In this document: positions 1 to 24,159 of the stretch, one piece after another | Layout: each line of letters starts with the position of its first letter | How positions within the stretch are numbered: position 1 is the first letter of the stretch | From: an uncultured bacterium | Lineage (GTDB): Bacteria; Planctomycetota; PLA2 | Direction: 5' to 3' | Assembly (NCBI GenBank): GCA_965369495.1 | Contig: CBDURV010000001.1 | Span: forward strand, 1-29,317 | DNA: 29,317 bases | Position numbers and translations under genes: made by a program | Notes under the pieces: model-generated | What the model was told of the DNA's origin: nothing | The model's database searches: none | The model's input: only the letters and a program-made list of their open reading frames with translations

Positions 1-228
1 GTGCCGATCCGCGAGATAGCCGCGCGCGAGCCGGTACATCCATGCCAAAAACGGCTTCTCGCCCTCGTAGCGAAAGCTCGCCCCCCGCTTGAGCGCGCGC
101 AGGTGAACGCCCTGCACCAGATCCTCGTCCGTCTCGTAGCGCAGCACGCGCCCCGCCTGCCGGTGGACGAAGCGCACTAGGTCAGCGCGGTGCCGCACCA
201 GCAGATCGGCCAGCGTCGGCGTCCGCAT
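1..228 (-). CDS. ECF sigma-70 factor, N-terminal part (runs off the left edge; missing from the ORF track)
   Basis: ATG at 228-226 overlaps the kinase TGA by one base (TGATG). Manual translation MRTPTLADLLVRHRADLVRFVHRQAGRVLRYETDEDLVQGVHLRALKRGASFRYEGEKPFLAWMYRLARGYLADRH has no stop to the window edge. It fits sigma region 2 (DxEDLVQ-like, F.AW.YR.AR...D). Confidence 0.75.
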   Translation of the reverse strand, partial: MRTPTLADLLVRHRADLVRFVHRQAGRVLRYETDEDLVQGVHLRALKRGASFRYEGEKPFLAWMYRLARGYLADRH

Positions 229-3194
229 CAGTCGATCTCGACCACCAGCCGCAGGCCCGTCTCGCCACCCGAACTGTCCGGCTCCGCCCCCGCCGGCGCG
301 TAGACCGGGAACGACTGGGGGTCGGCCTGCGCCCACGACCCGCCGCACAGGCGGCGCAGCCCGCGCCCCTCGTCGTACCAATCCCGCACCCACTCGCGCG
401 CGCTTCCGGCGCTGTCGAAGACGCCATGGATCGATTCGTCGATGGGGTAGCGCATGACCGCCTCCAATCGCGCCTCCCGTTGCGCAAAACAGGTCTTGGC
501 CCACTTGGGCTGAAATCGGTTGCCGAACACGTAGCGGCCGTGACCGTAGGCGGCGCGCACCCATTCCCGGAACGTGGGGAGCCTGAATTTCCACGAGCGT
601 CCGGCATGGCGCGCCCGCTCGGTTCGCCACGCCGCGTATGCCTTCGCATCGATCCAGCTCACGCCCACGACCGGAAATCGTCCGGTCCACCGCTTGGGCC
701 ACGAATAGCCGTCGTCCGTCTTGTGCCAGTAGGGCTTGCCCGGCTCCCCCGAAACCCCGGGTACGCGCGTGTCCGGGTTGTCGATCGCATCGAGGAACTG
801 CTTGTACTCCGCCACGGTCACCTCGCGCTCCATCATGAGGAACGGCCTCGCGTCGAAGTCGGGAGAGACAGCCACGAATCCCGGTGGCACGCGGTCGCGA
901 AGCGGAAGCCACGCCGGGAAGCCCTCTTCTCCCTGGAACTCGCCGGTGCCGATGGCCATGCGGGTCTCCAGGCAGCCTGCCCGCCGAAACAGCAGCAGAT
1001 AACGCCCCGACGGGACGAGCGGCGCCTCGAGCGGAGTCCGCCCGAGGTAGCAGCCCGGACTCGTCGCGAGTGGAATCGCGGTCAGGCGCGCACCCACTCC
1101 GGCAGTCAGCTCCTGTTCGCGCACGTTTCCGTCGCGCACGACGCGCGCGGTGACGCGACCTCCCCCCGCCAGCGCCCGCGCGTCCCCCACGGCGGCCGGA
1201 AGCGGCGCGAGGAGTTCGAAAAGAGCTCCGGCACGCGAAATCGTGATGGGGCGCGGCGGCGCGCGAGGCATGCGTTCGATTTCGTACAGCGACCGGACCG
1301 GCTCTCCGGCGACCGCCTCGATCCGATCGCCGCGCCGCATCTCGCCCTCGTTGTCCAGAACGAATACCGCGCCCCGCAGCGGCTCGCCCGCGAGGCGATC
1401 GATCAGGTCTCCCGGCCTCAGCTGGAGCGTCGACTCCACGATGCGAAGACAGAACGTGCCCGGCGCGGGGACGCTGGTCTCGACGCCGTAGGGCATCGGG
1501 ACGCTGCGTCGTTCGCCCGTCTCCGCCAACGAGTCGCACTCCCCCAATCGAAAGATCCAGACATGCGCGCCGGGCTCGCGCGTCCGAACCGGCAGCGGGA
1601 ACAGCGCCTCCCGATCGGGTGCGACATCCGCGTCGGGGTCCGCGCGACGCGCCAGAGCGCGGAAAAAGGCGGCCTCGTCGAAGTCCTCCCGCACCTGCGC
1701 TTCCCGCACCTTTTCGAGGTAGAGACGCGCGCGCACGCGGCGCACCCCGGCAACGGCGGGGTCGATCCGTTCGGCTCGCTTCAATTCGTCGAGAACGCGG
1801 TGAAACAGTCCGTCCCGTTCTCGACGCAGTCGCGCGGCGGCCCGCTCGAGTTGTTCGAGTTGAATCTCCTCCCTCGGTTCCAGGTAGCGCTCGATGCGGG
1901 CGTTCACCAGGATCCGCAGTTCGGACTCCATGCCTCTCGCCTGTTCGCGGCGTGTCCAATAGTCGTCCACCATCTCGTCCGCGAGACACACCAGCACGCG
2001 TGCATCCTCCCGATTGCGTCGTTCGGCGGCGGCACGCCACGCGGCGAAGGCGAGCAACGACGCGATCAGGAGCACAATCGTGCCGGCCGTCATCGGATGC
2101 GCGCGCACCCACTTCACGCTGCGCTCGCGACGCGAGGGCGTCCGGGAAACGATCGGCTCTCCCCGGCCGACGCGGCCGAGTTCGTCCCGCAGAACGATGG
2201 CATCGGGCCGGCGCTCCGGATCCTTGTGCAGGGCACGCAGCAGGACGATCTCCAGGTCGCGACCCACATGCGGATTGAGCCGACGCGGCTCCACGGGATC
2301 CTCCCGCGCCACGCGCGAGATCATCTGCTCGAGCGATCCGCCGGCGAACGGAACGCGCCCTGTCACGCACTGGTAGAGCGTGACCCCGAGCCCGTAGATG
2401 TCGCTGCGTTCCGAAACCGGCGCTCCGGCAAGTTGCTCCGGAGCCGCGTACTGGGTCGAGCCGGCGAACGTCGTGGTCAGCTCGCCGGCGGTCGCGTCAT
2501 CGGCGAGCGCGACGCCGAAGTCGAGCAGCAGCGCCAATCCGTCGGGCGCAATCTGGATGTTGGACGGCTTCACGTCGCGGTGGATGACACCCGCCGCGTG
2601 GGCACACGCCAGCGCGTCCGCGATCTGGCGGCACCATTCGACGCACTCGGCAAGCCACGCCGCGCCGGGCGGGCCCTCGGCGCGCCCCAGCGTGTCGTTT
2701 AGCCGACGCGCCATGCTCTCGCCCCGGGCGTACTCCATGACGAGATACCGCTCGCCCCGCTCTTCGCCCGCGGCGATCACCTGCACGATGTGTCGGTGCC
2801 GCAACCGAGCGATCGCGAGCGCCTCGCGCCGAAAGCGCTCCACCGCCGTCCGCGATGCAAGCAGGTCGCGGCGAATCAGCTTGAGCGCCACCTTGCGCTG
2901 CAGCGTCTCCTGCTCGGCCAGGAAGACCGTGCCCATGCCGCCCTCGTCGAGTACCTCCAGCAGTCGGTACTCCCCGAGACGCTCGTACGGAAGCGCGCCC
3001 GCATCCGCCGCGGGCCGCGCCTGGCGCTCCACGAACGCCGAATAGATCGCCCGGACACGCCCGCTGACGACCGGATCGACGGCGCCATGCCGCGCCAGAT
3101 ACGCTTCGGGGAGCTCCGGGTTCCCGGCCACGCAGGCATCCAGATACCGGTCGTAGATGGTGTCTCCGGCATCGGTCGAGCGGGAACGATCCAA
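228..3194 (-). CDS. Hanks-type Ser/Thr protein kinase with one TM helix and a C-terminal formylglycine-generating-enzyme (FGE/SUMF1)-like domain
   Basis: Kinase motifs EGGMGTV, VALK, HRDVKPSNI, DFG, APEQ, SDIYGLG; TM segment TIVLLIASLLAFAAW. FGE motifs EVTVAEY, PVVGVSW.DA.AY, RLPT..EW, G...EWV.D, GGSW, GLRLV. Start uncertain: in-frame TTG at 3194 or 3203; the ORF-track start at 3320 reads through the repeat. Confidence 0.9.
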   Translation of the reverse strand: MDRSRSTDAGDTIYDRYLDACVAGNPELPEAYLARHGAVDPVVSGRVRAIYSAFVERQARPAADAGALPYERLGEYRLLEVLDEGGMGTVFLAEQETLQRKVALKLIRRDLLASRTAVERFRREALAIARLRHRHIVQVIAAGEERGERYLVMEYARGESMARRLNDTLGRAEGPPGAAWLAECVEWCRQIADALACAHAAGVIHRDVKPSNIQIAPDGLALLLDFGVALADDATAGELTTTFAGSTQYAAPEQLAGAPVSERSDIYGLGVTLYQCVTGRVPFAGGSLEQMISRVAREDPVEPRRLNPHVGRDLEIVLLRALHKDPERRPDAIVLRDELGRVGRGEPIVSRTPSRRERSVKWVRAHPMTAGTIVLLIASLLAFAAWRAAAERRNREDARVLVCLADEMVDDYWTRREQARGMESELRILVNARIERYLEPREEIQLEQLERAAARLRRERDGLFHRVLDELKRAERIDPAVAGVRRVRARLYLEKVREAQVREDFDEAAFFRALARRADPDADVAPDREALFPLPVRTREPGAHVWIFRLGECDSLAETGERRSVPMPYGVETSVPAPGTFCLRIVESTLQLRPGDLIDRLAGEPLRGAVFVLDNEGEMRRGDRIEAVAGEPVRSLYEIERMPRAPPRPITISRAGALFELLAPLPAAVGDARALAGGGRVTARVVRDGNVREQELTAGVGARLTAIPLATSPGCYLGRTPLEAPLVPSGRYLLLFRRAGCLETRMAIGTGEFQGEEGFPAWLPLRDRVPPGFVAVSPDFDARPFLMMEREVTVAEYKQFLDAIDNPDTRVPGVSGEPGKPYWHKTDDGYSWPKRWTGRFPVVGVSWIDAKAYAAWRTERARHAGRSWKFRLPTFREWVRAAYGHGRYVFGNRFQPKWAKTCFAQREARLEAVMRYPIDESIHGVFDSAGSAREWVRDWYDEGRGLRRLCGGSWAQADPQSFPVYAPAGAEPDSSGGETGLRLVVEID

Positions 3195-3232
3195 GGTACC
3201 CAATGCGCGAGCACGATAGCAGGTCGCGGATT

Positions 3233-3416
3233 CGATACGGTACCGGGTGTTTTCCTGCGAAACTCGCGAGTCAACTTGGCAGACGAGTTTCGGAGACTTA
3301 CTCCCGGTACCGGATCTCACGAGGCCGTCACGGCCCGCGACCGGGCGAGCATCGACCGGTGTCCTCTTCCGAGGGCGCGTACTCGGAAGAATCGTGCCTG
3401 GCGCAGTAGTTCCAGG
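3233..3416 (+). repeat. Full bipartite element R1: left flank CGATA + module A (3238-3312, 75 bp palindrome) + linker type alpha + module B (3349-3416)
   Basis: A = CGGTACCGGG-tgttttcctg-CGAAACTCG-17 nt-CGAGTTTCG-gagacttact-CCCGGTACCG. B = gcatcgaccggtgtcctcTTCCGAGggcgcgtaCTCGGAAgaatcgtgcctggcgcagtagttccagg. Near-identical to copies at 13323 and 18510. Confidence 0.95.
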
Positions 3417-3490
3417 GCCGAAAAACCGGCGTGGCTTTTATCCGGCTCGGTTTGCCACTGCGCCACGCGGAACGACCCTACAATCCGCGC

Positions 3491-6064
3491 GTGGGAAACC
3501 GTGCACTTGCCTTGCTCCTGATTCCGTTCCTGTTCGGCGCTTGCGATAAGAGCAGCGCGACAAAGCGGACGCCGCAGGCCGACTTCTCCGAGGACGCCGT
3601 CGCGGCGCGCGTCGAACTGCTGCGTGCCGATGTCGAAGCCGAGCTCGGCGACACGATCGGCTCCGTGGATGTGACAATTTCGACCCCGAAAGACATGGCG
3701 AAGCTGTTGCAGCCGGAGTTGGAGCGCACCTACTCTGAAATTGAGGGCGGCTTGCGCGGCGCAACCCTGAAGAAGCAGTGCGAACTCGAAGCGCAGGCAT
3801 ACTCGTCCGCCCTACTCGCCAAGGTCGCAATGACGGGAGCGGCGTTGCACGTCTGCCCCGAGAATTTCAAGCGCATCGCGGACATCACGCCGGAGTGGGC
3901 GGGGATCCAGTCGCCGGACGGGCTCGACATCATCTTGATCCATGAGCTGGTGCATGTCTGGCAGGAGCGCCGCTACAAGCTGGAGACGTTCATCGGAACG
4001 CCCAGGAGCCTGGATGCGTTGCTCGCGCGCAGCGCGGTGCTCGAGGGACATGCCCAGCTGGTGACGCGCGCGGTCGCGCAGCGGCGCGGGATCAGCGAGG
4101 CGTTCGAACTTCTGGAGAGGACCCAGACCGAGGTGCCGGATTCCACGACCGACCCGGCCGCGCGTCAGCAGATGCAGCTGACGCAAGCGGTGACGAGCTT
4201 CACCTATGCACAGGGGCTGCGTCTGTGGGACGAGGTGATTGCGGAACTGGGGCGCCCGGCTGCGGTTGAGCTGCTGTTCACGGAGCCCCCCAGCTCGACG
4301 CGGGCGGTGGAGCGCGAGGGGCAGTACCTTCACCCGACGCCGGAACCCGAGGTCGATCTGGATCGCGCGATCCGCCAGCTTCGTCGCTATCTCGGGGAGT
4401 TCGAAAAACAGCCGCCGCAGGTCGTACCGATGATGCACGGGGCGCTACGCGTCGCGCTCTCCGCCGGCGGACCCGTTGCGCAGCGCGCCATCGATGACGT
4501 CGTGCGCGGCGCCGGGGTTATTGGCGCGCGGCACATCGTCGGCGTCGTGTTGTGCCGAAGCCCGCGCGCCGCCCGCGCCCTGATGGAAGCGTCGCTGATC
4601 GACGCGCGCGCGCGGGTGAAGCTGTTCGCCGACGGCGCGACCACGTTGCGCATCGTGTCGGAAGAGGACGTGGCCGGCGTCGCGGGCAAGTTCCTGCAGC
4701 TCAGAGTCGAGTCGGGGGGCAACACGATCAAGCTCAAGCGGGGGCTGTTCGCGGACGGCTACATCTTCGTGGACGTCGTCGCGCCGGACGGGGATCGCGA
4801 GCGGATGGTGCGCATGCTTCCCCGCCTGGCCTCACTGTTGGCCAAACCGTCACCGTGGAGCGGGATGGAGCGAGCACAGGCGATCGCCGAGATGCAGACC
4901 AGCCTGTCGCACGCCGACGTGACGGTACGCTGGCGTGCAGTGCGCAACCTCGCCCGCCTGATCGAGGCGCGGCCGGACCTCGAGACGGCGCTCCTGGGTG
5001 CGGCCGCGGACGCCGATCCGGGTGTGCGCCTCGTGGTCATGCGCGCAATGGCCGCAGCGGGACACGACCTCGTTCGTTTCGCCAAGGACCACGACTGGGA
5101 GGTGCGCGAGGCGTACTGCCGGCTGCGCGCGGAAGACGACGATCCCAAGCCGAAGCGAATCGAGATGCTCAAGCCGTTCCTCACGGACGAGTCGCACCTG
5201 GTTCAGTTGGCGGCATGCGAGGCGCTTGAGGAACTCGATGCGGAAAAGGACATTTCTTTCGACGCGATTGAGACGCTCTTCGCCTCGCCGGACGGCCGCG
5301 TCCGCGAGGCTGCGCTCGGCCTGATCCACTACTCCGTAAAAGGCACGCGCATAGCGGACCTCATGCTGCGCGCACTCGATGACGAGGAGACCAACGTTCG
5401 CGCGCGCGCCGCCCGGCGCGTTGACAAATACGTCAGCGCAAGCGGTCGCGCCGTTCCGAAGCTGATAGGGCTCCTGGACGACAAGTCGGTGCGTGTACAG
5501 CTCGCCGCGTTGAACGGACTGGGGGATTACGGCGCCGGTGCCAAAGAGTCGGTTGGCCGGATCATCCCGATGCTGGACGACCCGAAGTTGCGCGACGCCG
5601 CCGCGGACGCGTTGGCGGAGATGGGTTCGGTAGCGGGAGCCGCCAAGCCGGCCCTGGTGCGTGGGCTGAACTCGGAAGATCGTCGCTTCGCGTTCAAGGC
5701 GGCGGAGGCACTCTGGAAGCTTCGCTATCCGCGGCTGAAGTTGCTGCCGGTTCTTGCGGACACACTCAAGAACGGCAGCAGGTGGGATCGCGGCGACGCG
5801 GCGACGCTGCTGGCCAAGATCGGTGAGCCTGCGCGCGGCTACATTCCGGAGATCATCGAGCTTCTGGATTCGGACCAGGAGTATGTGCGGCGTGACGCCA
5901 TACAGGCATTGGGCGAGTTCGGGCCGGCCGCCAAAGCGGCGTTGCCGAAGTTGCGCACGATGCTCAAGACGCTGCCCAACGGCGTCGATTCCGGTCTGGG
6001 CCTGGGCGGTGGCGAACTGCGGGCCACGACGGTCGAAACGGCGATCAAGAAGATCGAAGGCTAG
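3491..6064 (+). CDS. Putative lipoprotein: HEXXH zinc-metallopeptidase-like domain plus C-terminal HEAT repeats
   Basis: In-frame GTG at 3491 gives VGNRALALLLIPFLFGA-C (lipobox-like). IHELVHVWQ is followed by AVLEGHA (possible third Zn ligand). Many HEAT-like units (D....VR..A...L..). Start uncertain (ORF track 3431). Confidence 0.75.
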   Translation: MGNRALALLLIPFLFGACDKSSATKRTPQADFSEDAVAARVELLRADVEAELGDTIGSVDVTISTPKDMAKLLQPELERTYSEIEGGLRGATLKKQCELEAQAYSSALLAKVAMTGAALHVCPENFKRIADITPEWAGIQSPDGLDIILIHELVHVWQERRYKLETFIGTPRSLDALLARSAVLEGHAQLVTRAVAQRRGISEAFELLERTQTEVPDSTTDPAARQQMQLTQAVTSFTYAQGLRLWDEVIAELGRPAAVELLFTEPPSSTRAVEREGQYLHPTPEPEVDLDRAIRQLRRYLGEFEKQPPQVVPMMHGALRVALSAGGPVAQRAIDDVVRGAGVIGARHIVGVVLCRSPRAARALMEASLIDARARVKLFADGATTLRIVSEEDVAGVAGKFLQLRVESGGNTIKLKRGLFADGYIFVDVVAPDGDRERMVRMLPRLASLLAKPSPWSGMERAQAIAEMQTSLSHADVTVRWRAVRNLARLIEARPDLETALLGAAADADPGVRLVVMRAMAAAGHDLVRFAKDHDWEVREAYCRLRAEDDDPKPKRIEMLKPFLTDESHLVQLAACEALEELDAEKDISFDAIETLFASPDGRVREAALGLIHYSVKGTRIADLMLRALDDEETNVRARAARRVDKYVSASGRAVPKLIGLLDDKSVRVQLAALNGLGDYGAGAKESVGRIIPMLDDPKLRDAAADALAEMGSVAGAAKPALVRGLNSEDRRFAFKAAEALWKLRYPRLKLLPVLADTLKNGSRWDRGDAATLLAKIGEPARGYIPEIIELLDSDQEYVRRDAIQALGEFGPAAKAALPKLRTMLKTLPNGVDSGLGLGGGELRATTVETAIKKIEG

Positions 6065-9452: not shown

Positions 9453-11414
9453 TCAACGGGGAGGTGCTGCTTGCGCGCGCGCAAGAGCCGCCTCCAGCGC
9501 CCGCCGCTCTTCCGCGCTCCACGCCGTCCCCAGCTTCGGATTCCAGTCCACGAGCGCCGCGCCGATTGCCGCACCGTCACGGGCGTGCTGGCGCGCAAGC
9601 GCCCGGACCGCTCGGTCGCGCGACTCGGCCCGCGTGTTGCGGTCCCGGAACAGCCGCAGACCCGCGGCGATCGCGGCGGTTAGTGCGAAGCCCTGCGCCG
9701 TGCACTGCTCGACGGCGTAGGACGCGACGCGGTCATCGGAGTCGGATAGCGCCTCGCGAAGCGCGCTCCGCGCGTCCGGCCGCATAACGAATCGCCGCAT
9801 GAGAAGTTCGCATGCAGCCAGGCGCACCAAGGGGGCGTCGTCTTTCGTCGATTCGAGCGCGACATCGCGCACTCCCTCATGGATTCCCGGCTGGCGGCCG
9901 AGCGCACGCAGGAGCGCGAGGTGGAATCGCTCGTCCGCACGCCGCATCAGTGCCAGCATTGCGACCTTCCGGGAGGCCGGACGCTGCTCAAGATCCATGA
10001 GGAAGTTAAGAGCGACGTACTGCTCCATCCGTGAGCCCGTCTCCACCCATCGCTCGAGGTGTCGAGCCGCCTCCACGGCGGGCGCGCCGCGTTGATGCAA
10101 GGCGCGCACACATGCCAATCGCACCGCTTCTTCGGGGTCCTCCAACCCCGCGAGCAATCCGTCGCGCCACGGCGACCCCGGTCGCGCGGCGTGGTAGCCG
10201 AGCGCGGAGGCTCCCGCCGCCCGCACGCGCGCGTCGGGATCCGTCAGCGCGGCGCCGAAGAGTTGCGCCAGTGACGCATCCGGAGGCGCCGCGCGCTGAT
10301 GGACACCAATCCCGGCCATTGCTGCCGCGCGAACCGCGGCTGGCTCGTCGTTCGCGAACGGCAGCAGATCCCGGATTGCGTCCGCAGGAACACTCGCGCG
10401 TGTCGCAGCCGCAGCCGCGCGCACCTGATCATCCTCGTCGCGATCGGCCAAGCGATCGAGAACGGCCCGCATCGGAACCGGGATCTCATCGCCTGCCAAG
10501 TACCGCAGTTCATGCAGTGCTCCGGCACGGACGCGCGCGTCATCGTCTGCCAAGAGGGGCAGAAGATCCGCAACCAGCCCATCACCCCGCGCGCGTCGGT
10601 ATTGGTCGCTCGCGTCCGGGTCGTCGGGCGGGGCGCCGGACCCGAACCAGCTATAGACGACCAGGAGCGCCCCGGCTTGAACGTCGGGATCCGGATCGCG
10701 TAGCAGCGTGCGTAGGTCGTGCCCCTCGACGTCGAGCGTACTGTTGAGCGCGTCCCAGATGATGCCCGCGGTAGACGACGGACCCCAAAGCTGCACACCG
10801 GGCGGAAGCCGCTGTGGAGTGTCTTCCTCGTCGGGATTCGCGACCGCGCGACAGAGCGCACGCCGAAGCGGCATGTCGGCCGAGAAATCGTGCGGCGCAT
10901 TGGCCGCGATGTGGTCCGCGGCGTCATTGCGCAGCCCTGCATCCCGATGGTGGATGCAACGCGCCAGGAATTCGCATTCGACCGCCCCCTCCGCGACCGC
11001 GATGACCAAGTTGAAAGCCGCCTCCCGCCGCTCTTGGTCCAGCTTCTCCAAAAGCGCGAGGGCGACTAGCGCATCCAGCGCGCACGGTCCCAACGCGCGA
11101 TAGAGCGCTTCTTCACCCCACTCAGCCTTCTCGACGGACTGAAGCAGGTCGTCTATCAGGCTGTCGGCCTGGCTGCCCGCCGCGACGATCTCCGCGACCA
11201 TCCGTCTCCGCCGCTCCTCGCCCGCAGCGGCCCACAAGGTGCGAAAGGCCTTCGCATCGCGCGCCAAGACTCGCTTCCCGTCCGTAGGCGAATCCGCGAC
11301 CGTGCGCGCGCCGCCGGACCGTCTGGAGCCCGACTCGCGCCCCGCGCCGATCCACCTGGCGGCGACGGCGGCGACGACGCCGATCAACACAACCCCAACG
11401 ACGCGGCGCGACAT
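9453..11414 (-). CDS. HEAT-repeat protein with N-terminal membrane anchor/signal
   Basis: ATG at 11414 gives MSRRVVGVVLIGVVAAVAARWIG. Repeated units such as DPDPDVQAGAL, DDDARVRAGAL, DPDARVRAAGA, DPEEAVRLAC, DSDDRVASYA. Confidence 0.8.
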   Translation of the reverse strand: MSRRVVGVVLIGVVAAVAARWIGAGRESGSRRSGGARTVADSPTDGKRVLARDAKAFRTLWAAAGEERRRRMVAEIVAAGSQADSLIDDLLQSVEKAEWGEEALYRALGPCALDALVALALLEKLDQERREAAFNLVIAVAEGAVECEFLARCIHHRDAGLRNDAADHIAANAPHDFSADMPLRRALCRAVANPDEEDTPQRLPPGVQLWGPSSTAGIIWDALNSTLDVEGHDLRTLLRDPDPDVQAGALLVVYSWFGSGAPPDDPDASDQYRRARGDGLVADLLPLLADDDARVRAGALHELRYLAGDEIPVPMRAVLDRLADRDEDDQVRAAAAATRASVPADAIRDLLPFANDEPAAVRAAAMAGIGVHQRAAPPDASLAQLFGAALTDPDARVRAAGASALGYHAARPGSPWRDGLLAGLEDPEEAVRLACVRALHQRGAPAVEAARHLERWVETGSRMEQYVALNFLMDLEQRPASRKVAMLALMRRADERFHLALLRALGRQPGIHEGVRDVALESTKDDAPLVRLAACELLMRRFVMRPDARSALREALSDSDDRVASYAVEQCTAQGFALTAAIAAGLRLFRDRNTRAESRDRAVRALARQHARDGAAIGAALVDWNPKLGTAWSAEERRALEAALARAQAAPPR

Positions 11415-11441
11415 GGTTTTCGAGAATACCCGACGAACCGC

Positions 11442-11468
11442 GATTGGCCGGGAGCGCACTGGCCAATC
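11442..11468. promoter_or_regulatory. Perfect 8-bp inverted repeat in a divergent intergenic region (possible operator)
   Basis: GATTGGCC-11 nt-GGCCAATC between the divergent starts at 11414 (-) and 11570 (+). Confidence 0.3.
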
Positions 11469-11569
11469 CCTCCGGGGTGAACGCACCACCATCCGCTACC
11501 GCTTGGTGACGGCGGCGCTTGAAAACTCAGCGGATTTGCCGCGGCACGGGATTCGCCTTCGGGAGATGT

Positions 11570-13322: not shown

Positions 13323-13500
13323 CGGTACCGGGTGTTTTCCTGCGAAACTCGCGAGTCAATTTGGCAGACGAGTCTCGGAGAATTACTCCCGGTACCGAAT
13401 CTCGGGTCGATCCGGACCGGGATTAGATGCACGGCATCGACCGGTGTCCTCTTCCGAGGGCGCTTACTCGGAAAAATTGTGTCTGACGCCGTATTCCCGT
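13323..13500 (+). repeat. Full bipartite element R3: module A (13323-13397) + linker type beta + module B (13434-~13497)
   Basis: Module A differs from R1 at 3 of 75 positions. Linker aatctcgggtcgatccggaccgggattagatgcacg. Begins 9 nt after the PEP-CTERM stop. Confidence 0.95.
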
Positions 13501-13565: not shown

Positions 13566-14723
13566 TCAGTCGCGAGGTGGGATCTCGCGGAGCGTCCACG
13601 GTCCGGCTCGGTTGTCGCGGTTCGCCAGCTCCGGCACCGCGATGTACGGCAACTCCAGCGTGGCGGCCACGTGGGACAACCGGCTTCCGAGTGACGGATC
13701 CACGACCCCCACGCACCCGTTCCACAGCGGACTGTTCGGCTGGGGCAGGTCGCCCCTCTTGGTCTCGCTGACCAGGAAGAACGGCTCCGACGGCTGTTCG
13801 GATCCCGGCGCGAACAGCACGCCGCTCGCCGGTGAATCGAACACTGCCACGCCGCTCGCGAAGCGTTGGCCGTCCTCTTCGCGAACGAGCTCACCGGACT
13901 TGCGGTAGGTGCCGAAGGAGTGCTGCACCGGTCGAAGTTGATGGCAGTAGAGGCGGTCGGTGGCCACCCACTCGACATCGATGTCGAAGCCGGCCACGTC
14001 ACGGATGCGCCAGCCCTGTTCAACCACTCTGCGGACCGTGTCGAGGTGGCGCTGGGCGTGCAACTGCCCGGAGCCCGAGGATGCTTGAAGGTTGATCTCA
14101 CCCCAGTAGGGAGCCTTCCTTTCGCCGACTTTCGCGATCGGGTTGTCGCGCTCGACGTCGAGGCACCACGAAACGTGGCCGCCGACCGTGCCGTTCCACC
14201 ACTTGTGCGCGAGCATCAGGTCTTCCGCGTCGCAGAATTCTATTACCAGCTCGTTGCCGGATGTGGCGAGATTGCCCGTCAGGGTCTGGGGCGAGAGTTG
14301 TTCGAGGTGGAAGGTCGGTACCTGAAGCACCAGCGCGACGCTGTCGTTTCCCTCGAACGGCGGTTGTGCCTCGAGGAACGCGGCGTACACGCGGCGCGCG
14401 ACCTCGACAGCTTCTTTCGCTGACGTGACCATGTGCGAGTACGTCTGGCCGCAGGACGGGCGGCGCGTGAAGAGGGAGCCGCGCACGAGTACGCGCGTGT
14501 GACCATGCGTCAGCGCCGCGTACTCCGCCGCCACGGTCTTGGCGAGATCTTCGGGAAGCGCCTGGCAACCGTTCTGAGTCAGTGCGTCCCGGTGTTGTTC
14601 GAACGCGGCGGTCGGGACCACACGGTAGGGAGCGACGTTTGCGCCGGGGATGCCGGACAGGACGAACAGGCCCGCGCCCTTGTCGCCCTGCTCGTGGGCG
14701 CGATCGCCGAAATCCGCGCGCAT
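13566..14723 (-). CDS. Minimal PEP-synthase/PPDK-like enzyme (ATP-grasp PEP/pyruvate-binding-type domain plus phospho-His swivel domain)
   Basis: GDKGAGL, VLVRGS, SCGQ, ALVLQ and DIDVEWV...LYCHQLRPV parallel PEP synthase GGKGASL, AVRSS, SFAGQ, VQ and DIEWA...LFIVQARP. GSRLSHVAATLELPYIAV parallels [21 protein letters not shown] with the His kept. Only 385 aa. Confidence 0.75.
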   Translation of the reverse strand: MRADFGDRAHEQGDKGAGLFVLSGIPGANVAPYRVVPTAAFEQHRDALTQNGCQALPEDLAKTVAAEYAALTHGHTRVLVRGSLFTRRPSCGQTYSHMVTSAKEAVEVARRVYAAFLEAQPPFEGNDSVALVLQVPTFHLEQLSPQTLTGNLATSGNELVIEFCDAEDLMLAHKWWNGTVGGHVSWCLDVERDNPIAKVGERKAPYWGEINLQASSGSGQLHAQRHLDTVRRVVEQGWRIRDVAGFDIDVEWVATDRLYCHQLRPVQHSFGTYRKSGELVREEDGQRFASGVAVFDSPASGVLFAPGSEQPSEPFFLVSETKRGDLPQPNSPLWNGCVGVVDPSLGSRLSHVAATLELPYIAVPELANRDNRAGPWTLREIPPRD

Positions 14724-14733
14724 GGCCGTTCGA

Positions 14734-16119
14734 TCACGTCTTGTGTTGCTGCAAGAAGTTCGAGAGCTTCTCGTACACGTCCTCCGAGGAGTCGTACTCG
14801 ATCATCTCCATGCCTTTCAGGTCCGTGGGAACCGCCTCGCTCCGTTTCCTGAGCAGGACCGTCGTCTTCCCGCGCCCGTACACGAGCCCCAGCTCCATCA
14901 TCACGCTCGGACTCCAATGGGTGATGTCGACTACAGCGCAGTCCGCTTCCTGCATCATCTGGCACACCTTGCACATGATGTCGACGTTGGAGACCTCTTC
15001 GTCCGCACGCTGAGGCTTGTAACCGCAAGCATCACCCGCGCGTTTGATGCCGTACTTGTAGATGTCGTTCATTTCCGGCTTGTACGACATAGCAACGAAC
15101 ATGTTTCTTGAGCTGTACGCGATCTCCTTCGGACACGGTTGCCCCCCGCCGAGCTTCCAGCAGGTCATCGTCGACACTTCTGTCACTTCGAGGAACCGGC
15201 GGACCTCCGGGTGCTTGTCAAGCCCCGTGAGAACCGCGACGCATTCGCCGCTTTCGACCGCGGGGGTCTTAACGACGAGCGTGTCGGTCGCCAGCGCCGC
15301 CTCGGAGTCATCCGCGTCCACGCTCTTGAGGACGCCCGTCATGCGCGCGTACGGCCAGTACCGGTCGAACAGCGGGGTGTGCCGTGTTTCGATGTCCTGC
15401 GGCTCCCGTGAATCCGAATCGAGACGACAGGAGCCGAGAGTGCAGATACCCGGGCTGAGTCGCTCGCGCTCTTCCGGCGTGCAGGCGACAAGGCCTTGGA
15501 GATACGCGTTGATCGTGCTTCGCGCGCGCTCGCGATACTCCGCTTGGTTTCCCGGATACGCGGGGTTGCGGAGTTGGGGTTCGCTCAGGAGGACGGCGCT
15601 GTCGAACACCCTCTTCTCCAGGGCCTGCTCGAGTTCGCGGAAGTAGACCGCGGAGTTCTTCGTGATGACGTCCACGAAGTTCGAGTTGTACGTGGGTACG
15701 ATCGCGAGCAAGGTCAAATAGGGTGCCGTGGCCCCGCGAAAGGCGTTGCGAACGTCGCGCGCCATCTCGAACGTGAGCCCGTTGCTGATTCCGCCCCGTG
15801 GCGAAGAACTGAGCGCGACCACCGCGGGGACGGCGCCATCCTCCTCCATGCTGCGCCGGAGCCGGTCCAGCTCGTCCAGAATCCGGCTCTTCGAATCGTC
15901 GTAGATCCGGCGCGCGTGCGAAATGTCGCGATCCGCGCTTACCTCCGCGCGAAGGACGACCCGGCAAGCGACATCCGGAAGTTCGGCCTCGTGGAGCGCG
16001 GGATCGCTGTCCACGCACATCACGTACCCGGAAGACTGAACGAGATCCGGACCGACAATGGAGGTCAGCAGGGTTCCACGTCCCCCGATTCCAATCATGC
16101 AAATCGCGTCTCTGCTCAT
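14734..16119 (-). CDS. Tubulin/FtsZ(CetZ)-like GTPase-fold domain fused to a C-terminal nucleoside 2-deoxyribosyltransferase/TIR-like domain
   Basis: GAGGAG then ATG at 16119. IGIGGRG (T1), VDSD, SSSPRGGISNGLTFEMA (degenerate GGGTGSG loop), LTLLAIVP and FDSAVLLSE occur in FtsZ order. The C-terminus FVAMSY...RADE...IMCKV...EADCAVVDIT..SPSVMMELG....K..VLL...VPTDL.G...IEY matches NDT-like domains (NPNV.YELG). Confidence 0.7.
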   Translation of the reverse strand: MSRDAICMIGIGGRGTLLTSIVGPDLVQSSGYVMCVDSDPALHEAELPDVACRVVLRAEVSADRDISHARRIYDDSKSRILDELDRLRRSMEEDGAVPAVVALSSSPRGGISNGLTFEMARDVRNAFRGATAPYLTLLAIVPTYNSNFVDVITKNSAVYFRELEQALEKRVFDSAVLLSEPQLRNPAYPGNQAEYRERARSTINAYLQGLVACTPEERERLSPGICTLGSCRLDSDSREPQDIETRHTPLFDRYWPYARMTGVLKSVDADDSEAALATDTLVVKTPAVESGECVAVLTGLDKHPEVRRFLEVTEVSTMTCWKLGGGQPCPKEIAYSSRNMFVAMSYKPEMNDIYKYGIKRAGDACGYKPQRADEEVSNVDIMCKVCQMMQEADCAVVDITHWSPSVMMELGLVYGRGKTTVLLRKRSEAVPTDLKGMEMIEYDSSEDVYEKLSNFLQQHKT

Positions 16120-16168
16120 CTCCTCGTCCTCCGCGGTTGACCGTTCGCCCTTGTAGCATGAACCTCCC

Positions 16169-17104
16169 GTGAACCCGGGCGCCGCACCGCAACCGACCCT
16201 CGTTTTCCCGTCCACCAACCCCGATCTCGACGGGGTTGCGTGTGCGTGGGCCTATGCCGAGTTGCTGCGCAGCTCGGGCGAGGACGCGCTGGCGTGGGTG
16301 GCCGGCGAGCCCGACGGGGAGGCGCGCTGGGTGCTGCAGGAACGCGACGTGGAGATCTCGCGCGACCCGGAGGCGATCGGTACGGCGGGTCGGTTCGTCT
16401 ACGTCGACGGGAGCGAGTTGCCCGGGCTGCCGGAAGGCATCGATCCCATTGCAGTCGTCGAGGTCATCGACCACCGTCGCCAGCATCGCGCGGCGACGGA
16501 CTTTCCGAACGCACGCCTTCAGATCGAAGCCGTGGGCGCAGCCGCGACCCTGGTGCTCGAGCGCTTCCGGGAGACGTGGGCCGACCCATCCCCCGAATCG
16601 GCGATCCTTCTCTACGCGGCGATTCAATCGAACACGCAACGCCTCAATGGATCGGTCACCACGGAGCGCGATCGGCGGGCCGCCGCCTACCTCGAGACCG
16701 TCTGCGAACCGCCGCGCGACCTGATTGCCCGCCAGATGGCGGCGCGCCGGTCCGAGATCCTCGCGGACCTGCGCGCTGCCGTGAAGGCGCAGAGCAAGAC
16801 GTTCACGGCTGCCACGGGCGCGTTCGTCGTCGCGCAACTCGAGCTGCCGGGTGTTGAGGTGCTGCTACGCGAGCGCGACTTCAAGGAGACTCTCGCGGCC
16901 AGCCTGGATGGCCCCCGCGCCATGGTCAACATTGTCGACTCCGCGCTCGGCAGGTCGTTCCTGTTGGTACCGAATGCGGAGTTCCGGGACGAAGTCGCCG
17001 CGGGAGTGGGGCGCGAGTTCAACGGGCAGATCGCGACGATGCAGTCCGCGATGCTTCGAAAACAGATCGTGCACGCTCTCGGCGCCCGGGCCGGCACCGA
17101 GTGA
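16169..17104 (+). CDS. DHH-family phosphoesterase, family II (Mn-dependent) inorganic pyrophosphatase-like, with variant metal ligands
   Basis: NPDLDGVACAWAYAELL, VYVD, EVIDHRR, IEAVGAAATLV, LLYAAIQSNT and TTERD align with PpaC NPDTDTICSAIAYADL, ILVD, EVIDHHR, EPVGCTATIL, LMLSAIISDS and TCTDQD. Confidence 0.8.
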   Translation: MNPGAAPQPTLVFPSTNPDLDGVACAWAYAELLRSSGEDALAWVAGEPDGEARWVLQERDVEISRDPEAIGTAGRFVYVDGSELPGLPEGIDPIAVVEVIDHRRQHRAATDFPNARLQIEAVGAAATLVLERFRETWADPSPESAILLYAAIQSNTQRLNGSVTTERDRRAAAYLETVCEPPRDLIARQMAARRSEILADLRAAVKAQSKTFTAATGAFVVAQLELPGVEVLLRERDFKETLAASLDGPRAMVNIVDSALGRSFLLVPNAEFRDEVAAGVGREFNGQIATMQSAMLRKQIVHALGARAGTE

Positions 17105-18509: not shown

Positions 18510-18681
18510 CCGGGTGTTTTCCTGCGAAACTCGCGAGTCAATTTGGCAGACGAGTTTCGGAGAATTACTCCCGGTACCGAATCTCGGGTCGATCCGGACC
18601 GGGATTGGATGCACGGCATCGACCGGCGTCCTCTTCCGAGGGCGCTTACTCGGAAAAACTGTGTCTGACGCCGTACTTCCT
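18510..18681 (+). repeat. Remainder of full element R4: module A (to 18579) + linker type beta + module B (18616-~18681)
   Basis: ccgggtgttttcctgcgaaactcgcgagtcaatttggcagacgagtttcggagaattactcccggtaccgaatctcgggtcgatccggaccgggattggatgcacggcatcgaccggcgtcctcttccgagggcgcttactcggaaaaactgtgtctgacgccgtacttcc, nearly identical to R3. Confidence 0.95.
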
Positions 18682-21585: not shown

Positions 21586-24159
21586 TCAGCGACTGGCGCT
21601 CGCGGCGGCGGCGGCGACCATCGGCTGCCTGCTCTTGGCCGCCTTCTCGATCACCTTGCGCAGCTTATCGATTTCGGTCTTCCCATGGTCGACGTAGATA
21701 GGTGCGAGCAGCGCCATGAGACCGGCGCCGACGGTGTAAACCTTGCCGCCGTACGGGCCCCACGCTCCGATAGGCTCCCAGCCGGGCGTCTTGACCGACG
21801 TAAGCATCGTGTTGAGTTGGAGCAGCCACCTTTGGGCCATTTTGCTGGGCTCAGCCTGGCAAAGCAGGCGCGCGCCGAACGCCCAGTAGAGATAGTCGAC
21901 CTCGTCGCGTTTCTCGGTGTCCCAGCCGGGCTCCCGATCCTGTACGACCGCGCGCCCGAGCTTGTACGTCGAGCCGACCTTCGTAACTTCCGGCTCGACC
22001 AGGGCGCGGCACCAACAGGCGATGGCGGTCGTGGAATACACGCTTCGGTCGCGACCTATGATCGTGCGTCCGCGGATTTCGATCGTGTCCGTGCCAAGTT
22101 GTTTCTTGAACATGGGGAACGCCGGGCTGCCGCCAGCGACGTTGTAGCCGACCTGCCCGAATTCGGGATCGGTCATCTTGGTGAACCAGTCGATGCCGCC
22201 CTGGAGAGCGATCGCCGAGCGTATTCCTGTCGCGTGCTCCGCGGCGACGAGCGCGTAGATACACCAGCCGGTGCAGAAGGTGTCATTGTCGCCCGGTCGC
22301 GCCCGGTAGCGCCACGCGAGGGACGGGTTGCGCGCCTTCCGCAGGTACTTGATGGCGTGTTCAAGCGTGCGGTTCATCGACTTGCCGCCGCTCAAGATCG
22401 CGTGTTCGGCCAGCGCGGCGGTCGAGATGGCGTGCAACAGCACGTGGTGCGTGTGCTTGCGTTCACCGATGAGGCCGTCCTTCTGCTGCCAGCGCTGCAG
22501 GTAGCGGCAGGCGGCCAAGACTGTCGAGCCGTGCCGGGGATGCTGCTCGGTCACACCTGCCGCCGCGTATCCGAGCAGCGCCATCGCCGTCACGCCGAGA
22601 TCGCAATCGGGGTTGCCGCCGTACTTGTCGCAGTCCCACGCCGCCCAGTCCTCGGTGCGCTCCACAGACCGTGTGAGCCAGTCGAGAGCGCCCTCCGCTT
22701 TCTTGCGGGTCTTGGTGTCGAGTTTCGCGAATCGAGCCGTGCGCAACTCCGGCACGCCGGGCACCGCCTCGCGCACGATGCGGGCGATTGCGCGCACCGC
22801 CACGCTGGCGACGCGCGGATCCTTGTCGCGCGCGACATCGGTGAGCAGTTCGAGCAGGTCGGGGTGGAGCGGCCGCACAAGCCCGGCGAGTTCGATGACG
22901 CCGGGAGTGCGCGCTTGGCTCGCGGCCGCAGCGAACACGTCAATGTGCGGTCGCGGTTTGCCGACCTGGAAGAGCCGATACCAGCAGTACGCGCGGACGG
23001 CGGGGTTTTCGTCCTTTAGACCTCGCCGAAGGTCCGCCTCCTGCGCATCGGACCAGCGAAAGCGCGTCACGACAACCCGATACACTGCGGCGCGCACGCC
23101 CTCGTCGGCATCCTTGGTCGCGGCGGGCACGCCCCCGAGGACATCCTTCGGAACCTTCGAGTATGTGGAGGCGAGCAGCCCGAAGAACGCGCGCCGCACG
23201 GCAGGATCCTTGTGCGTCGCAAGCGAACCGAGTTTGTCGAACGGGAGGCCCTGCTGCTTGGTGTTGGCCCAGTCCACGCGCGCGAGCGCTTCGAGCAGCG
23301 GCGCGTTGCCCTTGGCCGCTTCGGTGGCGATGGTGCCGTGCAATTTGGGGGCGAGGAAAGAAATGGCATCGATCGTGGTCGGGAGTCGCGCCAATAACTC
23401 GGGCCAAATCTCATCGCTCACGGGTGTCACCGACTCGGCCGCGGCCGCGCGCACCACCGGCGCCGGATCCTCCAGCGCCTTGAGCAGGACGCGAACGACC
23501 ATCTGCTTGTCTGGCAGAACCTGCGCCGCCGCCCGCACAGCGTTTCCACGCACGCTGGCTTCAGGATCGGCGCAAGCCGCCTGGATCCTCGCGGAATAGC
23601 GTCCCGCCTTCGGCCCGAATGCGACCAGCGCACCATATCCCGCGGCGCGACGCGTCTTGCTCTTGGAGTCGAGGTACTTCTCCAGCGCGGCAAAGCTGGG
23701 CGGCCCCACTTTCGCAAGGGCTGCCGCCGCAGCGGCGCGGGTGTCCGCGTGTCGTGAGATCAGCAGGCGGCAGAGTGCGGAAACGTGTTTTGATCGCGCG
23801 TAGAGGAGTGCGGGCGCGAGCGTGCGGCGAACGGTGGGATCGTCGTCGCCGGCTACGCGAATGATGCTCGTTCCATGCTTCGTGAAGGTGGCCGCATCCT
23901 TGCTCCACTCGGCCAGTAACGCGGCCGCGGAGCGGCGTCCGGGAACCGAAATCTTCTTCCACGCCTTGAGCACGTCCTTGGTCGCCCGCGGGCCGTACGA
24001 GCGCAACACATCGCTGGCCTCTTGCGCCCTGTCCGCACGGCGCGAGCCGAGCGCGATGGCCCACTTGCCCGTATCCACTTGCCCGTGCGCCACCCCCGCG
24101 AGCAACATCAGAGTCACGCAGATCGAACCGCAGATCGAACCACTTTCCATCGGGGGCAT
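21586..24159 (-). CDS. Secreted HEAT-repeat protein with a C-terminal prenyltransferase/squalene-cyclase-repeat (alpha-alpha toroid) domain
   Basis: Signal-like VTLMLLAGVAHG-Q; HEAT units (DDDPTVRR, DPEASVRGNAV, DADEGVRAAV). GVTAMALLGY..AG, YLQRWQQKDG, HAISTAAL, AWRYRARPGDND..CTGW..AL, FGQVGY. Exact start uncertain (24159, 24150 or a later codon). Confidence 0.75.
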   Translation of the reverse strand: MPPMESGSICGSICVTLMLLAGVAHGQVDTGKWAIALGSRRADRAQEASDVLRSYGPRATKDVLKAWKKISVPGRRSAAALLAEWSKDAATFTKHGTSIIRVAGDDDPTVRRTLAPALLYARSKHVSALCRLLISRHADTRAAAAAALAKVGPPSFAALEKYLDSKSKTRRAAGYGALVAFGPKAGRYSARIQAACADPEASVRGNAVRAAAQVLPDKQMVVRVLLKALEDPAPVVRAAAAESVTPVSDEIWPELLARLPTTIDAISFLAPKLHGTIATEAAKGNAPLLEALARVDWANTKQQGLPFDKLGSLATHKDPAVRRAFFGLLASTYSKVPKDVLGGVPAATKDADEGVRAAVYRVVVTRFRWSDAQEADLRRGLKDENPAVRAYCWYRLFQVGKPRPHIDVFAAAASQARTPGVIELAGLVRPLHPDLLELLTDVARDKDPRVASVAVRAIARIVREAVPGVPELRTARFAKLDTKTRKKAEGALDWLTRSVERTEDWAAWDCDKYGGNPDCDLGVTAMALLGYAAAGVTEQHPRHGSTVLAACRYLQRWQQKDGLIGERKHTHHVLLHAISTAALAEHAILSGGKSMNRTLEHAIKYLRKARNPSLAWRYRARPGDNDTFCTGWCIYALVAAEHATGIRSAIALQGGIDWFTKMTDPEFGQVGYNVAGGSPAFPMFKKQLGTDTIEIRGRTIIGRDRSVYSTTAIACWCRALVEPEVTKVGSTYKLGRAVVQDREPGWDTEKRDEVDYLYWAFGARLLCQAEPSKMAQRWLLQLNTMLTSVKTPGWEPIGAWGPYGGKVYTVGAGLMALLAPIYVDHGKTEIDKLRKVIEKAAKSRQPMVAAAAASASR

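Follow-up and report, generated by a model that had tools for sequence, protein, structure and literature searches.

The locus described here raises the question of whether a protein can belong to the tubulin/FtsZ superfamily when it lacks the signature loop of that superfamily, and what such a protein might do when it is joined to a hydrolase domain. The protein is the product (P0001) of gene A, which lies in a 29,317-nt stretch of DNA (henceforth the window; contig CBDURV010000001.1 of assembly GCA_965369495.1) from an uncultured bacterium of the Planctomycetota lineage PLA2. A first-pass annotation, made from the letters of the window, had proposed that gene A encodes a degenerate tubulin/FtsZ domain fused to a hydrolase domain resembling NDT and TIR enzymes. 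On the evidence of its predicted structure, gene A most likely encodes a genuine, though extremely diverged, member of the tubulin/FtsZ structural superfamily, followed by an NDT/TIR-like domain with four conserved cysteines (Cys4 domain), and it is paired with a dikinase-like gene (gene B). The reading we favor, with about even confidence, is that A and B make up a two-gene conflict or signaling module that is rare and has spread horizontally, and in which a tubulin scaffold would gate an N-glycosidase with a dikinase as partner.

Gene A and its predicted tubulin/FtsZ fold

The open reading frame (ORF) of gene A includes a TGA stop at 14736-14734 and yields a product of 461 aa (Table 1). A 494-aa form starting from a TTG at 16218 appeared in the ORF list and was rejected: we place the start at the ATG at 16119, because a strong Shine-Dalgarno-like sequence, GGAGGACGAGGAG, lies directly upstream and the relatives of gene A begin at the same point. 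Every motif quoted in the first-pass annotation is present in the 461-aa translation: IGIGGRG (residues 9-15), VDSD (36-39), ARRIYDDSKSRI (69-80), RGGISNG (108-114), LAIVP (138-142), NSAVYFREL (155-163), FDSAVLLSE (172-180), and CWKLGGGQPCPKEI (320-333). The motifs are not chance resemblances: GIGGRG, CVDSDP, and SSPRGGISN are identical in 4/4 members, which share 35-42% overall identity, and in the structural model described below these three fall where the T1 loop, the S2/T2 segment, and the T4 loop are expected.

Table 1. Coordinates, strands, and supporting evidence for features of the window.
Feature	Position	Strand	Basis or remark
Gene A (P0001), predicted tubulin/FtsZ-fold region and Cys4 NDT/TIR-like domain	14734..16119	minus	ORF and translation
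Gene A residues 1-225, predicted nucleotide-binding (GTPase-type) domain of the tubulin/FtsZ fold	15445..16119	minus	Model, fold matches
Gene A residues 226-312, in place of the tubulin C-terminal (activation) domain	15184..15444	minus	Model, VIA alignments
Gene A residues 313-461, Cys4 NDT/TIR-like domain	14737..15183	minus	Profile scores, relatives, fold matches
Shine-Dalgarno-like sequence GGAGGACGAGGAG, directly upstream of the gene A ATG	16120..16132	minus	Sequence read
Gene B (P0002), 385 aa, PPDK_N-type ATP-grasp domain and C-terminal GSRLSH motif	13566..14723	minus	Spacing, profiles, Foldseek
DHH-family gene (P0003), variant family-II pyrophosphatase-like	16169..17104	plus	DHH 8.4e-7; divergent from gene A
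IS110/IS1111-family transposase, broken, two ORFs of 139 and 223 aa	17411-18438	minus	Adjoins module
171-nt intergenic repeat, copies	13328-13498, 18510-18680; also 3243-3413		First two 96% identical to each other
171-nt intergenic repeat, partial copies	12493, 21504, 24435
Ser/Thr kinase fused to FGE-sulfatase domain, and three large HEAT-repeat proteins	228-3320, 3431-6064, 9453-11492, 21586-24159	minus, plus, minus, minus	Around module

The structure of gene A was modeled with AlphaFold2 (AF2) from an alignment of three full-length members together with relatives of the C-terminal domain. The mean predicted local distance difference test score (pLDDT) of the model is 75, with values of 70-90 over residues 1-225 and below 50 over residues 229-293. 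Residues 1-225 form the series S1-T1(GIGGRG)-H1-S2(CVDSDP)-S3-H3-S4-T4(SSPRGGISN)-H4-S5-H5-S6-H6-H7, which we take to be the tubulin/FtsZ order of strands and helices from S1 to H7. When the model was searched against PDB with Foldseek, the top 50 matches were all tubulin-family chains (E 1.8e-7 to 1.4e-5), including CetZ (1.8e-7), TubZ, FtsZ, and gamma-, alpha-, and beta-tubulin. A comparison with 48,161 representatives by VIA-align, which is independent of Foldseek, gave the same family: CetZ 3zid_B has a Z of 21.6 (267 residues aligned, model residues 3-331) and CetZ2 of 20.5, followed by TubZ and BtubA (both 19.6), gamma-tubulin (19.5), Asgard and Odin tubulins (17.5-18.7), PhuZ (17.2-17.8), and FtsZ (16.8). 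Generic Rossmann and short-chain dehydrogenase/reductase folds trail these matches at a Z of ~12. The alignments to CetZ, TubZ, and tubulins extend through model residues 315-331, and structure matches in AFDB clusters, the ESM Atlas, and BFVD agree with the tubulin fold. In a language-model feature search with residues 1-320, the clusters that carry Pfam annotation are all tubulin, TubZ, or CetZ (score 0.88, taken as a lead only). At the level of sequence, hhalign pairs residues 6-40 of gene A with residues 13-46 of E. coli FtsZ (IKVIGVGGGG...AVNTDA; E 0.056), a weak but congruent alignment that sets GIGGRG on G17-G22 (the T1 loop) and D37-S38-D39 on N43-T44-D45.

The proposal that residues 1 to ~230 adopt a tubulin/FtsZ fold is therefore borne out by the structure search, which places residues 3-331 there, and we regard a two-domain tubulin/FtsZ fold over these residues, predicted from a shallow alignment, as very probable. 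Neither PF00091 nor PF13809 matched P0001 in a Pfam search at E<=1, a PHROGs search returned no tubulin family at E<=10, and a whole-protein feature search of the Atlas gave no usable match. One AFDB cluster, A0A7G1HSL1, is a 507-aa 'Tubulin/FtsZ GTPase domain-containing protein' that aligns with model residues 1-458 (E 2.7e-13, 14% identity) and is perhaps a canonical tubulin whose C-terminal domain is similar.

How much of the nucleotide pocket survives in such a protein? Loops were assigned from the topology of the AF2 model, and on this assignment two of them would be intact. T1 is canonical (GIGGRG, residues 10-15, after S1) and invariant in four members, and the Asp of T2 (D39, on FtsZ D45) is kept. 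T3, which follows S3, has no glycine and carries the invariant residues S61, R64, and I66 instead. T4, which follows S4, reads S-S-P-R-G-G-I-S-N in 4/4 members versus GGGTG(S/T)G in the superfamily; it retains the GG pair and the position of the loop, with a conserved Arg inserted, and does not fit the signature. After H7 the family reads GICTLGSCRLD or GICTLALGDW, with no acidic residue common to all members in a topology-only alignment of a poorly modeled region, so that no conserved T7 acidic pair is seen; the activation-domain region is the least conserved and least confidently modeled part of gene A. The degeneracy of the signature loop, already noted in the first-pass annotation, thus extends to T3 and apparently to T7. 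Many polar residues are nonetheless invariant in three or four members (D37, S38, D39, S61, R64, R108, N113, N145, D150, T153, N155, E162, and E180), and the pocket therefore looks functional but remodeled. Its ligand may be something else than GTP, or binding may not be coupled to canonical polymer-stimulated hydrolysis.

Gene A thus shares with CetZ, TubZ, FtsZ, and tubulin (PF00091) a two-domain fold over ~270 residues, the T1 GxGGxG, the Asp equivalent to FtsZ D45, and the GG of T4. It differs from them in the missing profile match, in T4 (SSPRGGISN), in a T3 without glycines, in T7, where no conserved acidic pair is seen, and in a degenerate C-terminal domain, as well as in its fusion to an N-glycosidase-type domain and its dikinase-encoding partner. 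A further comparison is with FtsZl1 (Tubulin_2, PF13809) and FtsZl2, both of which retain the GGGTG(S/T)G loop through which they were discovered; FtsZl1 has no recognizable T6-H7 region or C-terminal domain, bears coiled-coil and alpha-helical tails, and has vWA/GTPase/OmpA neighbors (Makarova and Koonin, 2010; PMC2875224). Like these families, gene A is a highly diverged, sporadic prokaryotic tubulin relative in a multi-gene accessory module (PMC2875224), but it has an NDT/TIR domain and a dikinase partner and is devoid of the GGGTG(S/T)G loop. FtsZl1 and FtsZl2 are the most diverged tubulin families described so far, still with the loop that gene A has lost.

The fold matches also bear on a quite unlikely alternative, in which the tubulin-like domain is inert and serves as bait for a tubulin-type or cytoskeleton-targeting protein of an invader (e.g. 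phage PhuZ/TubZ), so that contact activates the effector and gene B is an independent regulator. Phage tubulins are indeed among the matches (PhuZ Goslar at a Z of 17.8, phiKZ TubZ at 17.5, and matches in BFVD), and the language-model neighbors of residues 1-320 are mostly phage TubZ/PhuZ-like clusters, again as a lead only at a score of 0.88. However, CetZ, TubZ, and eukaryotic-type tubulins score equal to or above the phage tubulins, and the invariant T1, T2 Asp, and T4 GG point to a retained ligand site rather than to dead bait. A precedent for bait comes from passages of a survey of conflict systems in which rare FtsZ/tubulin domains are listed among the effector-position domains and, like inactive cell-division ATPases, are described as effector- or bait-type (Kaur, Burroughs, Iyer, and Aravind, 2020, eLife; PMC7159879). 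A target within the host itself would be unlikely on this alternative, since a search that matched 13/14 control genomes gave no PF00091 (FtsZ/tubulin) match in this assembly (78% complete) or in 20 relatives, of which 14 are >=90% complete. PF13809 was not found in the host genome either (E<=0.001), and gene A is the only tubulin-fold protein found in the host assembly.

The Cys4 domain and its fusion partners

In the module that we favor, the tubulin scaffold would act on the domain that follows it, and the identity of this domain is the second question of the locus. Residues 336-461 match NDT- and TIR-type structures, as the first-pass annotation had anticipated for the C-terminus. The best VIA-align match is MilB 4ohr (Z 13.8, root-mean-square deviation 2.7 over 125 residues), followed by NDT 7o62 (13.7) and 6evs (13.5), DNPH1/RCL (12.7), and TIR domains including SfSTING-TIR, MAL, and SARM1 (11-12). 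These Z values lie so close together that NDT-like and TIR-like are not separable for this domain. By sequence, P0001 scores 24.8 bits against PF05014 (NDT; 2.5e-5, aligned residues 373-429), below the cutoff of 28.8, and 13.3 bits against PF10137 (CAP12-PCTIR_TIR; 0.085), below the cutoff of 24.7, while the PADLOC model of a CBASS TIR effector, PDLC00733, matches at 1.7e-7. The close relatives P0004 (31.6 bits) and P0011 (39.3) pass the cutoff of PF10137, and P0011 just passes that of PF05014 (29.0 bits vs 28.8). The domain family is large, with 11,075 relatives (representatives) at E<=1e-3 and 1,643 at E<=1e-10; among the 147 relatives in alignment A6, PF10137 is matched in 62 and PF05014 in 22 (E<=1e-4).

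The family has the signature C-[FW]-K-x-G-x(2-3)-C-P ... VFVxMPF ... W(K/R)AD ... NIDIMCKIC ... WNPNVxFELGL ... DLKGxEYIxY. In gene A its cysteines are C320 and C329 in CWKLGGGQPCP and C383 and C386 in MCKVC, and these four residues are, with E409, near-invariant across the family, the Cys motifs being general in A6. Glu409 (MELG), which opens the helix that follows strand 3, is the predicted catalytic residue and is conserved in >=90% of the sequences in alignments A5 and A6; the Glu of the ELG motif is thus kept, in agreement with the first-pass annotation. By contrast, CWKLGGG..CP, which had been taken for a linker, is a conserved N-terminal element of the domain family that holds two of the four Cys. 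This element would therefore be the first half of a probable zinc clasp within the effector domain, and a zinc site formed by the four Cys is probable from their pattern. The relative P0011 contains two tandem copies of the domain, each with its own CxKxGxxxCP element.

The nearest curated sequence family is that of CAP12/Pycsar PycTIR (PF10137) and the CBASS TIR effectors, which have a Glu at the same point of the fold. Gene A differs from them in its score below the PF10137 cutoff, in the added four-Cys clasp (CxKxGx2-3CP and CKxC), and in an N-terminus predicted to be a tubulin fold and not a SAVED, STING, or cNMP-binding sensor domain. No CD-NTase or cyclase domain was seen in the large ORFs of the window, where the neighbors of gene A are gene B, the DHH gene, a gene for a PEP-CTERM protein, and the broken IS110 element. 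The best fold matches are to NDT/MilB/DNPH1 enzymes (PF05014), and NxxVxxELG resembles the NDT nucleophile motif; unlike these enzymes, the domain falls below the Pfam cutoff, is fused to a tubulin-fold region, and carries the four-Cys element. We know of no NDT/MilB/DNPH1 enzyme with such an element.

A view of what controls this domain comes from its fusions elsewhere in the family. A response-regulator receiver (Response_reg) precedes the Cys4 domain in 16 of the 147 relatives in A6, and these receiver-Cys4 fusions are a largely unstudied class of two-component output. In P0022 the partner is an nSTAND1/2 plus nSTAND6 NTPase and in P0029 an AAA_35 NTPase, while P0015 and P0032 combine PAS, or PAS and GAF, with two copies of the Cys4 domain. 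P0013 (728 aa) joins GAF and the N-terminal half of Enzyme I (HPr-binding, phospho-His) to two tandem Cys4 domains and has no PEP-binding barrel. Other partners among the 147 relatives are EAD11, Mrr_cat, HD-CE, HEAT, CDC48_N, Prok-RING, and YukD. HEAT repeats, which also occur in proteins around gene A (Table 1), are fused to a Cys4 domain in P0006.

Several of these genes lie among mobile or defense genes. The gene for P0013 (L003/L004 6001-8187) is in an integrase-rich island and adjoins nrdD, nrdG, and dcd. The gene for P0160, an Aminicenantes protein annotated as 'nucleotide-binding protein' (L014/L015 5001-6026), starts 2 nt after that of a 931-aa MmeI-like restriction-modification enzyme and has ImmA/IrrE-type and PIN genes nearby, and the gene for P0023 adjoins an IS110 transposase and MazE. 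At a further locus (L016/L017 5001-11172), a radical-SAM gene and an AlaX-like gene (tRNA_SAD and DHHA1) have on either side a gene for one of two paralogous ~600-aa proteins, both of which combine a helical N-terminal region with two Cys4 domains in tandem. From these fusions and contexts we conclude that the Cys4 domain is an output or effector module placed under NTP-dependent oligomerizers, small-molecule sensors, or phosphoryl transfer, often in defense islands.

In gene A, the tubulin fold takes the place of the controlling module. The arrangement would follow the logic of STAND NTPase-TIR and TIR-STING effectors, in which a nucleotide-dependent oligomerizing module is fused to a TIR-like hydrolase; the Cys4 domain itself also follows nSTAND1/2 and AAA_35 NTPases in other proteins, and gene A has fold matches to SfSTING TIR filaments. 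What differs is the oligomerizing module, which would be a tubulin fold in place of a P-loop STAND or STING domain.

Gene B, the rarity of the pair, and its genomic setting

Gene B begins 10 nt past the stop of gene A; it had been passed over in the first-pass annotation, and any mechanism has to take it into account. A profile of five gene B members matches PEP synthase (0.0071) and PPDK (0.25) in PDB in the right N-to-C order, and PPDK_N (PF01326) is matched in one of the five (3.3e-5). The model of gene B is of low confidence (pLDDT 59), and its top Foldseek matches are rifampin phosphotransferase (3.3e-10), PEP synthase, HpeI, and PPDK, ahead of other ATP-grasp enzymes. Conserved across the family are Lys15 in GDKGAG, a DxEW...HQLRP block, and G-S-R-L-S-H-x-A...xPYIAV, which we take to be, respectively, the Lys of the ATP site, the E/Q block that binds Mg, and the phospho-His motif. 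From these residues gene B looks active. The last motif, an invariant G-S-R-L-S-H-x-A followed by xPYIAV, resembles that of the PEP-utilizers (PF00391) and marks a putative phospho-His swivel domain.

Gene B accordingly shares with the rifampin phosphotransferase, PEP synthase, PPDK, and HpeI dikinases a PPDK_N-type ATP-grasp domain followed by a [G]-S-x-x-S-H-x-A motif. Unlike PPDK, PEP synthase, and rifampin phosphotransferase, it has only 385 aa and no third, acceptor-binding domain: gene B and its relatives (385-413 aa) end just after the His motif. Since neither a PEP/pyruvate barrel nor a rifampin-binding domain is present, the acceptor site must come in trans, presumably from gene A. 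The architecture of P0013 ties a phospho-His domain to the Cys4 domain independently of the A-B operon.

Genes with the full architecture of A are rare. The searches as a whole covered ~15 billion proteins and yielded only three full-length relatives. Among ~5.8 billion cluster representatives we found only two, P0004 (40% identity) and P0005 (37%), and a further two fragments, P0040 (N-terminal) and P0012 (C-terminal), came from an exhaustive HMMER search of 1.84 billion representatives. Identity to P0004 and P0005 is 39% and 36% over residues 1-225 of gene A, 27% and 24% over residues 226-312, and 52% and 50% over residues 313-461. With the N-terminal profile, a word-indexed search returned only the four known members, and a scan of JGI metagenomes gave no match. 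On the two independent contigs that carry P0004 and P0005, a gene for a 407-413-aa protein follows with a 4-nt overlap, and these two genes are the gene B homologs that had been found independently. A third gene B homolog, P0007, is preceded on its contig by a partial gene of 264 aa. The three are Logan contigs from SRR22198272, SRR20217174, and SRR26421365. Gene B or a homolog comes directly after A wherever that neighbor is visible, and A and B are therefore a conserved pair.

The distribution of the pair is sporadic. The gene A profile matched one of 40 genomes of the order, namely this one, with a genome of the same genus among the 39 others, and searches of 20 relatives, one of them from the same genus, turned up neither gene B nor the DHH gene. 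When 185,579 species genomes were scanned with a pattern, the single match, in Thalassoglobus (L001), was rejected as spurious, because SSPRGGISN lies there by chance in an alternative frame of a Ser/Asp-rich low-complexity gene. No RNA data set was listed as containing the stretch, and two marine-sediment metagenome runs held only small shares of its words. This distribution bears on whether gene A could be a lineage-specific tubulin relative for cell organization, with a C-terminal domain that serves nucleotide salvage or is inactive. A tubulin-fold protein would be unusual and potentially useful in a host where PF00091 is unmatched, as in the 20 relatives, and PF13809 too; a housekeeping role is nevertheless barely credible, given that the same-genus genome and the 38 others from the order gave no match to gene A, that the scan of species genomes returned only the spurious match, that the gene adjoins a broken insertion sequence (IS) element between copies of an intergenic repeat, and that it is fused to an effector-type domain with a conserved catalytic Glu.

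The window is of high GC content (63-70%) and encodes Ser/Thr kinase, HEAT-repeat, PEP-CTERM, and carboxypeptidase-regulatory-like proteins. Within it, the block formed by B, A, and the DHH gene, together with the broken IS110 element, is bracketed by the repeat copies at 13328-13498 and 18510-18680. From the sporadic distribution, the IS element, and the flanking repeats we conclude that the module is accessory and was probably acquired horizontally. The DHH gene shows the same absence pattern as A and B in the 20 relatives and is a possible third member of the module, but it is known next to A from this genome only, and a metagenome scan with P0003 found no relatives. P0003 scores 102 bits against NF003877 (cutoff 283), has DHR where the DHH motif is expected, and carries another residue in place of the His that usually precedes NPDxD.

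The presence of three adjacent genes for nucleotide or phosphoryl-transfer enzymes is the starting point for another explanation, unlikely in our estimate, in which the block is a cassette for a nucleotide metabolite. Gene A would then be a MilB/DNPH1-like N-glycosidase or base-exchange enzyme whose tubulin-like region holds nucleotide or substrate without polymerizing, gene B would be a dikinase acting on its substrate or product, with the DHH protein clearing pyrophosphate or phosphate. The slightly higher Z of MilB (13.8) and the NDTs (13.7, 13.5) over TIR domains (~12) for residues 336-461 is in keeping with this explanation, as is the better score of P0001 on PF05014 than on PF10137, but the differences in Z between NDT and TIR are below 2. 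The degenerate T3, T4, and T7 loops would likewise suit a holding domain, and split dikinases with a separate acceptor-binding subunit exist, with HpeI among the matches of gene B. On the other hand, the C-terminal family serves mostly as output for sensors, receivers, and STAND NTPases that precede it, and it occurs in restriction-modification, toxin-antitoxin, and integrase islands; the block contains no further biosynthetic genes; and the linkage to the DHH gene is known from this genome only.

A proposed nucleotide-gated effector

How might A and B work together as a conflict or signaling module? In the mechanism that we propose, the tubulin-like domain would bind nucleotide in its remodeled pocket (T1 GIGGRG, T2 Asp, T4 Arg), and the nucleotide state or a trigger would drive head-to-tail self-assembly of gene A. 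Assembly would join the C-terminal domains and so switch on cleavage of NAD+ or of a nucleotide, as oligomerization does in TIR/NDT enzymes. Gene B would move phosphate from ATP onto its own His351 and then onto gene A or a ligand held by A, a route proposed because gene B has no acceptor domain of its own, and would thereby set or reset the switch. The proposal of the first-pass annotation, that polymerization or nucleotide sensing might gate the hydrolase, would fit the domain census of the C-terminal family, with its STAND NTPases, receivers, and PAS/GAF domains. Of this picture, the genes, the A-B linkage, the conserved residues, the fusion partners of the family, and the sporadic distribution are established and the two folds are predictions, while nucleotide binding, polymerization, the substrate, the direction of phosphotransfer, and the biological role are inferred.

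A number of observations weigh against this mechanism or against its parts. Residues 1-312 of gene A are unrecognized by Pfam (E<=1), NCBIfam, PADLOC, and PHROGs and have no PDB match by phmmer or profile search; because no profile recognizes the region, the tubulin fold rests on one AF2 model with three sequences over it. The stretch of lowest confidence, residues 229-293, is where the T7 loop and the activation domain for canonical polymerization-coupled hydrolysis would lie, and, with T3, T4, and T7 degenerate, the domain may bind a ligand other than GTP or may not polymerize. For gene B, the swivel domain has no profile match in Pfam searches and is identified by its motif, hhalign found nothing when the gene B family was compared with P0013, which has a swivel domain, and pLDDT is below 50 in the C-terminal half of the model, where the swivel region lies. 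Finally, no known defense-system model covers the A-B pair, PADLOC matching the effector domain only. Receiver, PAS, and GAF domains, like many others to which the Cys4 domain is fused, belong to ordinary signaling, so that a role in defense is not proven.

A more specific form of the mechanism, very unlikely as we judge it, is that the tubulin switch is charged by the dedicated dikinase and not by GTP exchange. The ATP-loaded His351 of gene B would phosphorylate a nucleotide or residue in the remodeled pocket (T4 Arg, no T3 glycines), which would drive or reset filaments and thus turn the zinc-clasped NDT/TIR-like N-glycosidase on. If true, it would mean a cytoskeletal-type polymer powered in a new way and an immune or signaling switch of a new class.

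That tubulin homologs take part in conflict systems has precedent. Passages of Kaur et al. (2020; PMC7159879) describe them in predicted NTP-dependent conflict (immune) systems as multimerizing components, with GTPase-centric and ternary systems pairing tubulin with GAP1-N2/DO GTPases, HSP70, vWA, and FNIII proteins; the general idea is therefore not new. Gene A resembles these homologs as a tubulin-superfamily member in a predicted NTP-dependent immune system, while the tubulin passages of that survey describe neither a direct fusion to an NDT/TIR-like domain nor a PPDK-like enzyme as partner (PMC7159879). Our literature search found no description of a tubulin with a TIR/NDT defense fusion, or of a dikinase or phospho-His protein with TIR, that matches the A-B pair. 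What we did not find described is a tubulin family that is invisible to profiles and devoid of the signature loop, its direct fusion to a Cys4 NDT/TIR domain, and its obligatory pairing with a minimal PPDK-like enzyme.

The gene A family would thus indicate the reach of the tubulin/FtsZ superfamily, in that the signature loop is lost and profiles are blind while the structure prediction is still clear, and it occurs in a lineage in which no FtsZ profile match was found (this genome and 20 relatives). With it, a tubulin fold would join STAND, STING, and SAVED as NTP-dependent assembly modules in front of TIR-like effectors. The two proteins are small (461 and 385 aa) and directly amenable to work in vitro. 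The effector is tied to phospho-His chemistry in two independent ways, by the operon with a minimal PPDK-like enzyme and by the Enzyme-I-like fusion in P0013. Together with the 16 receiver fusions, these ties suggest that phosphoryl transfer controls a widespread, unstudied family of Cys4 domains with more than 11,000 relatives.

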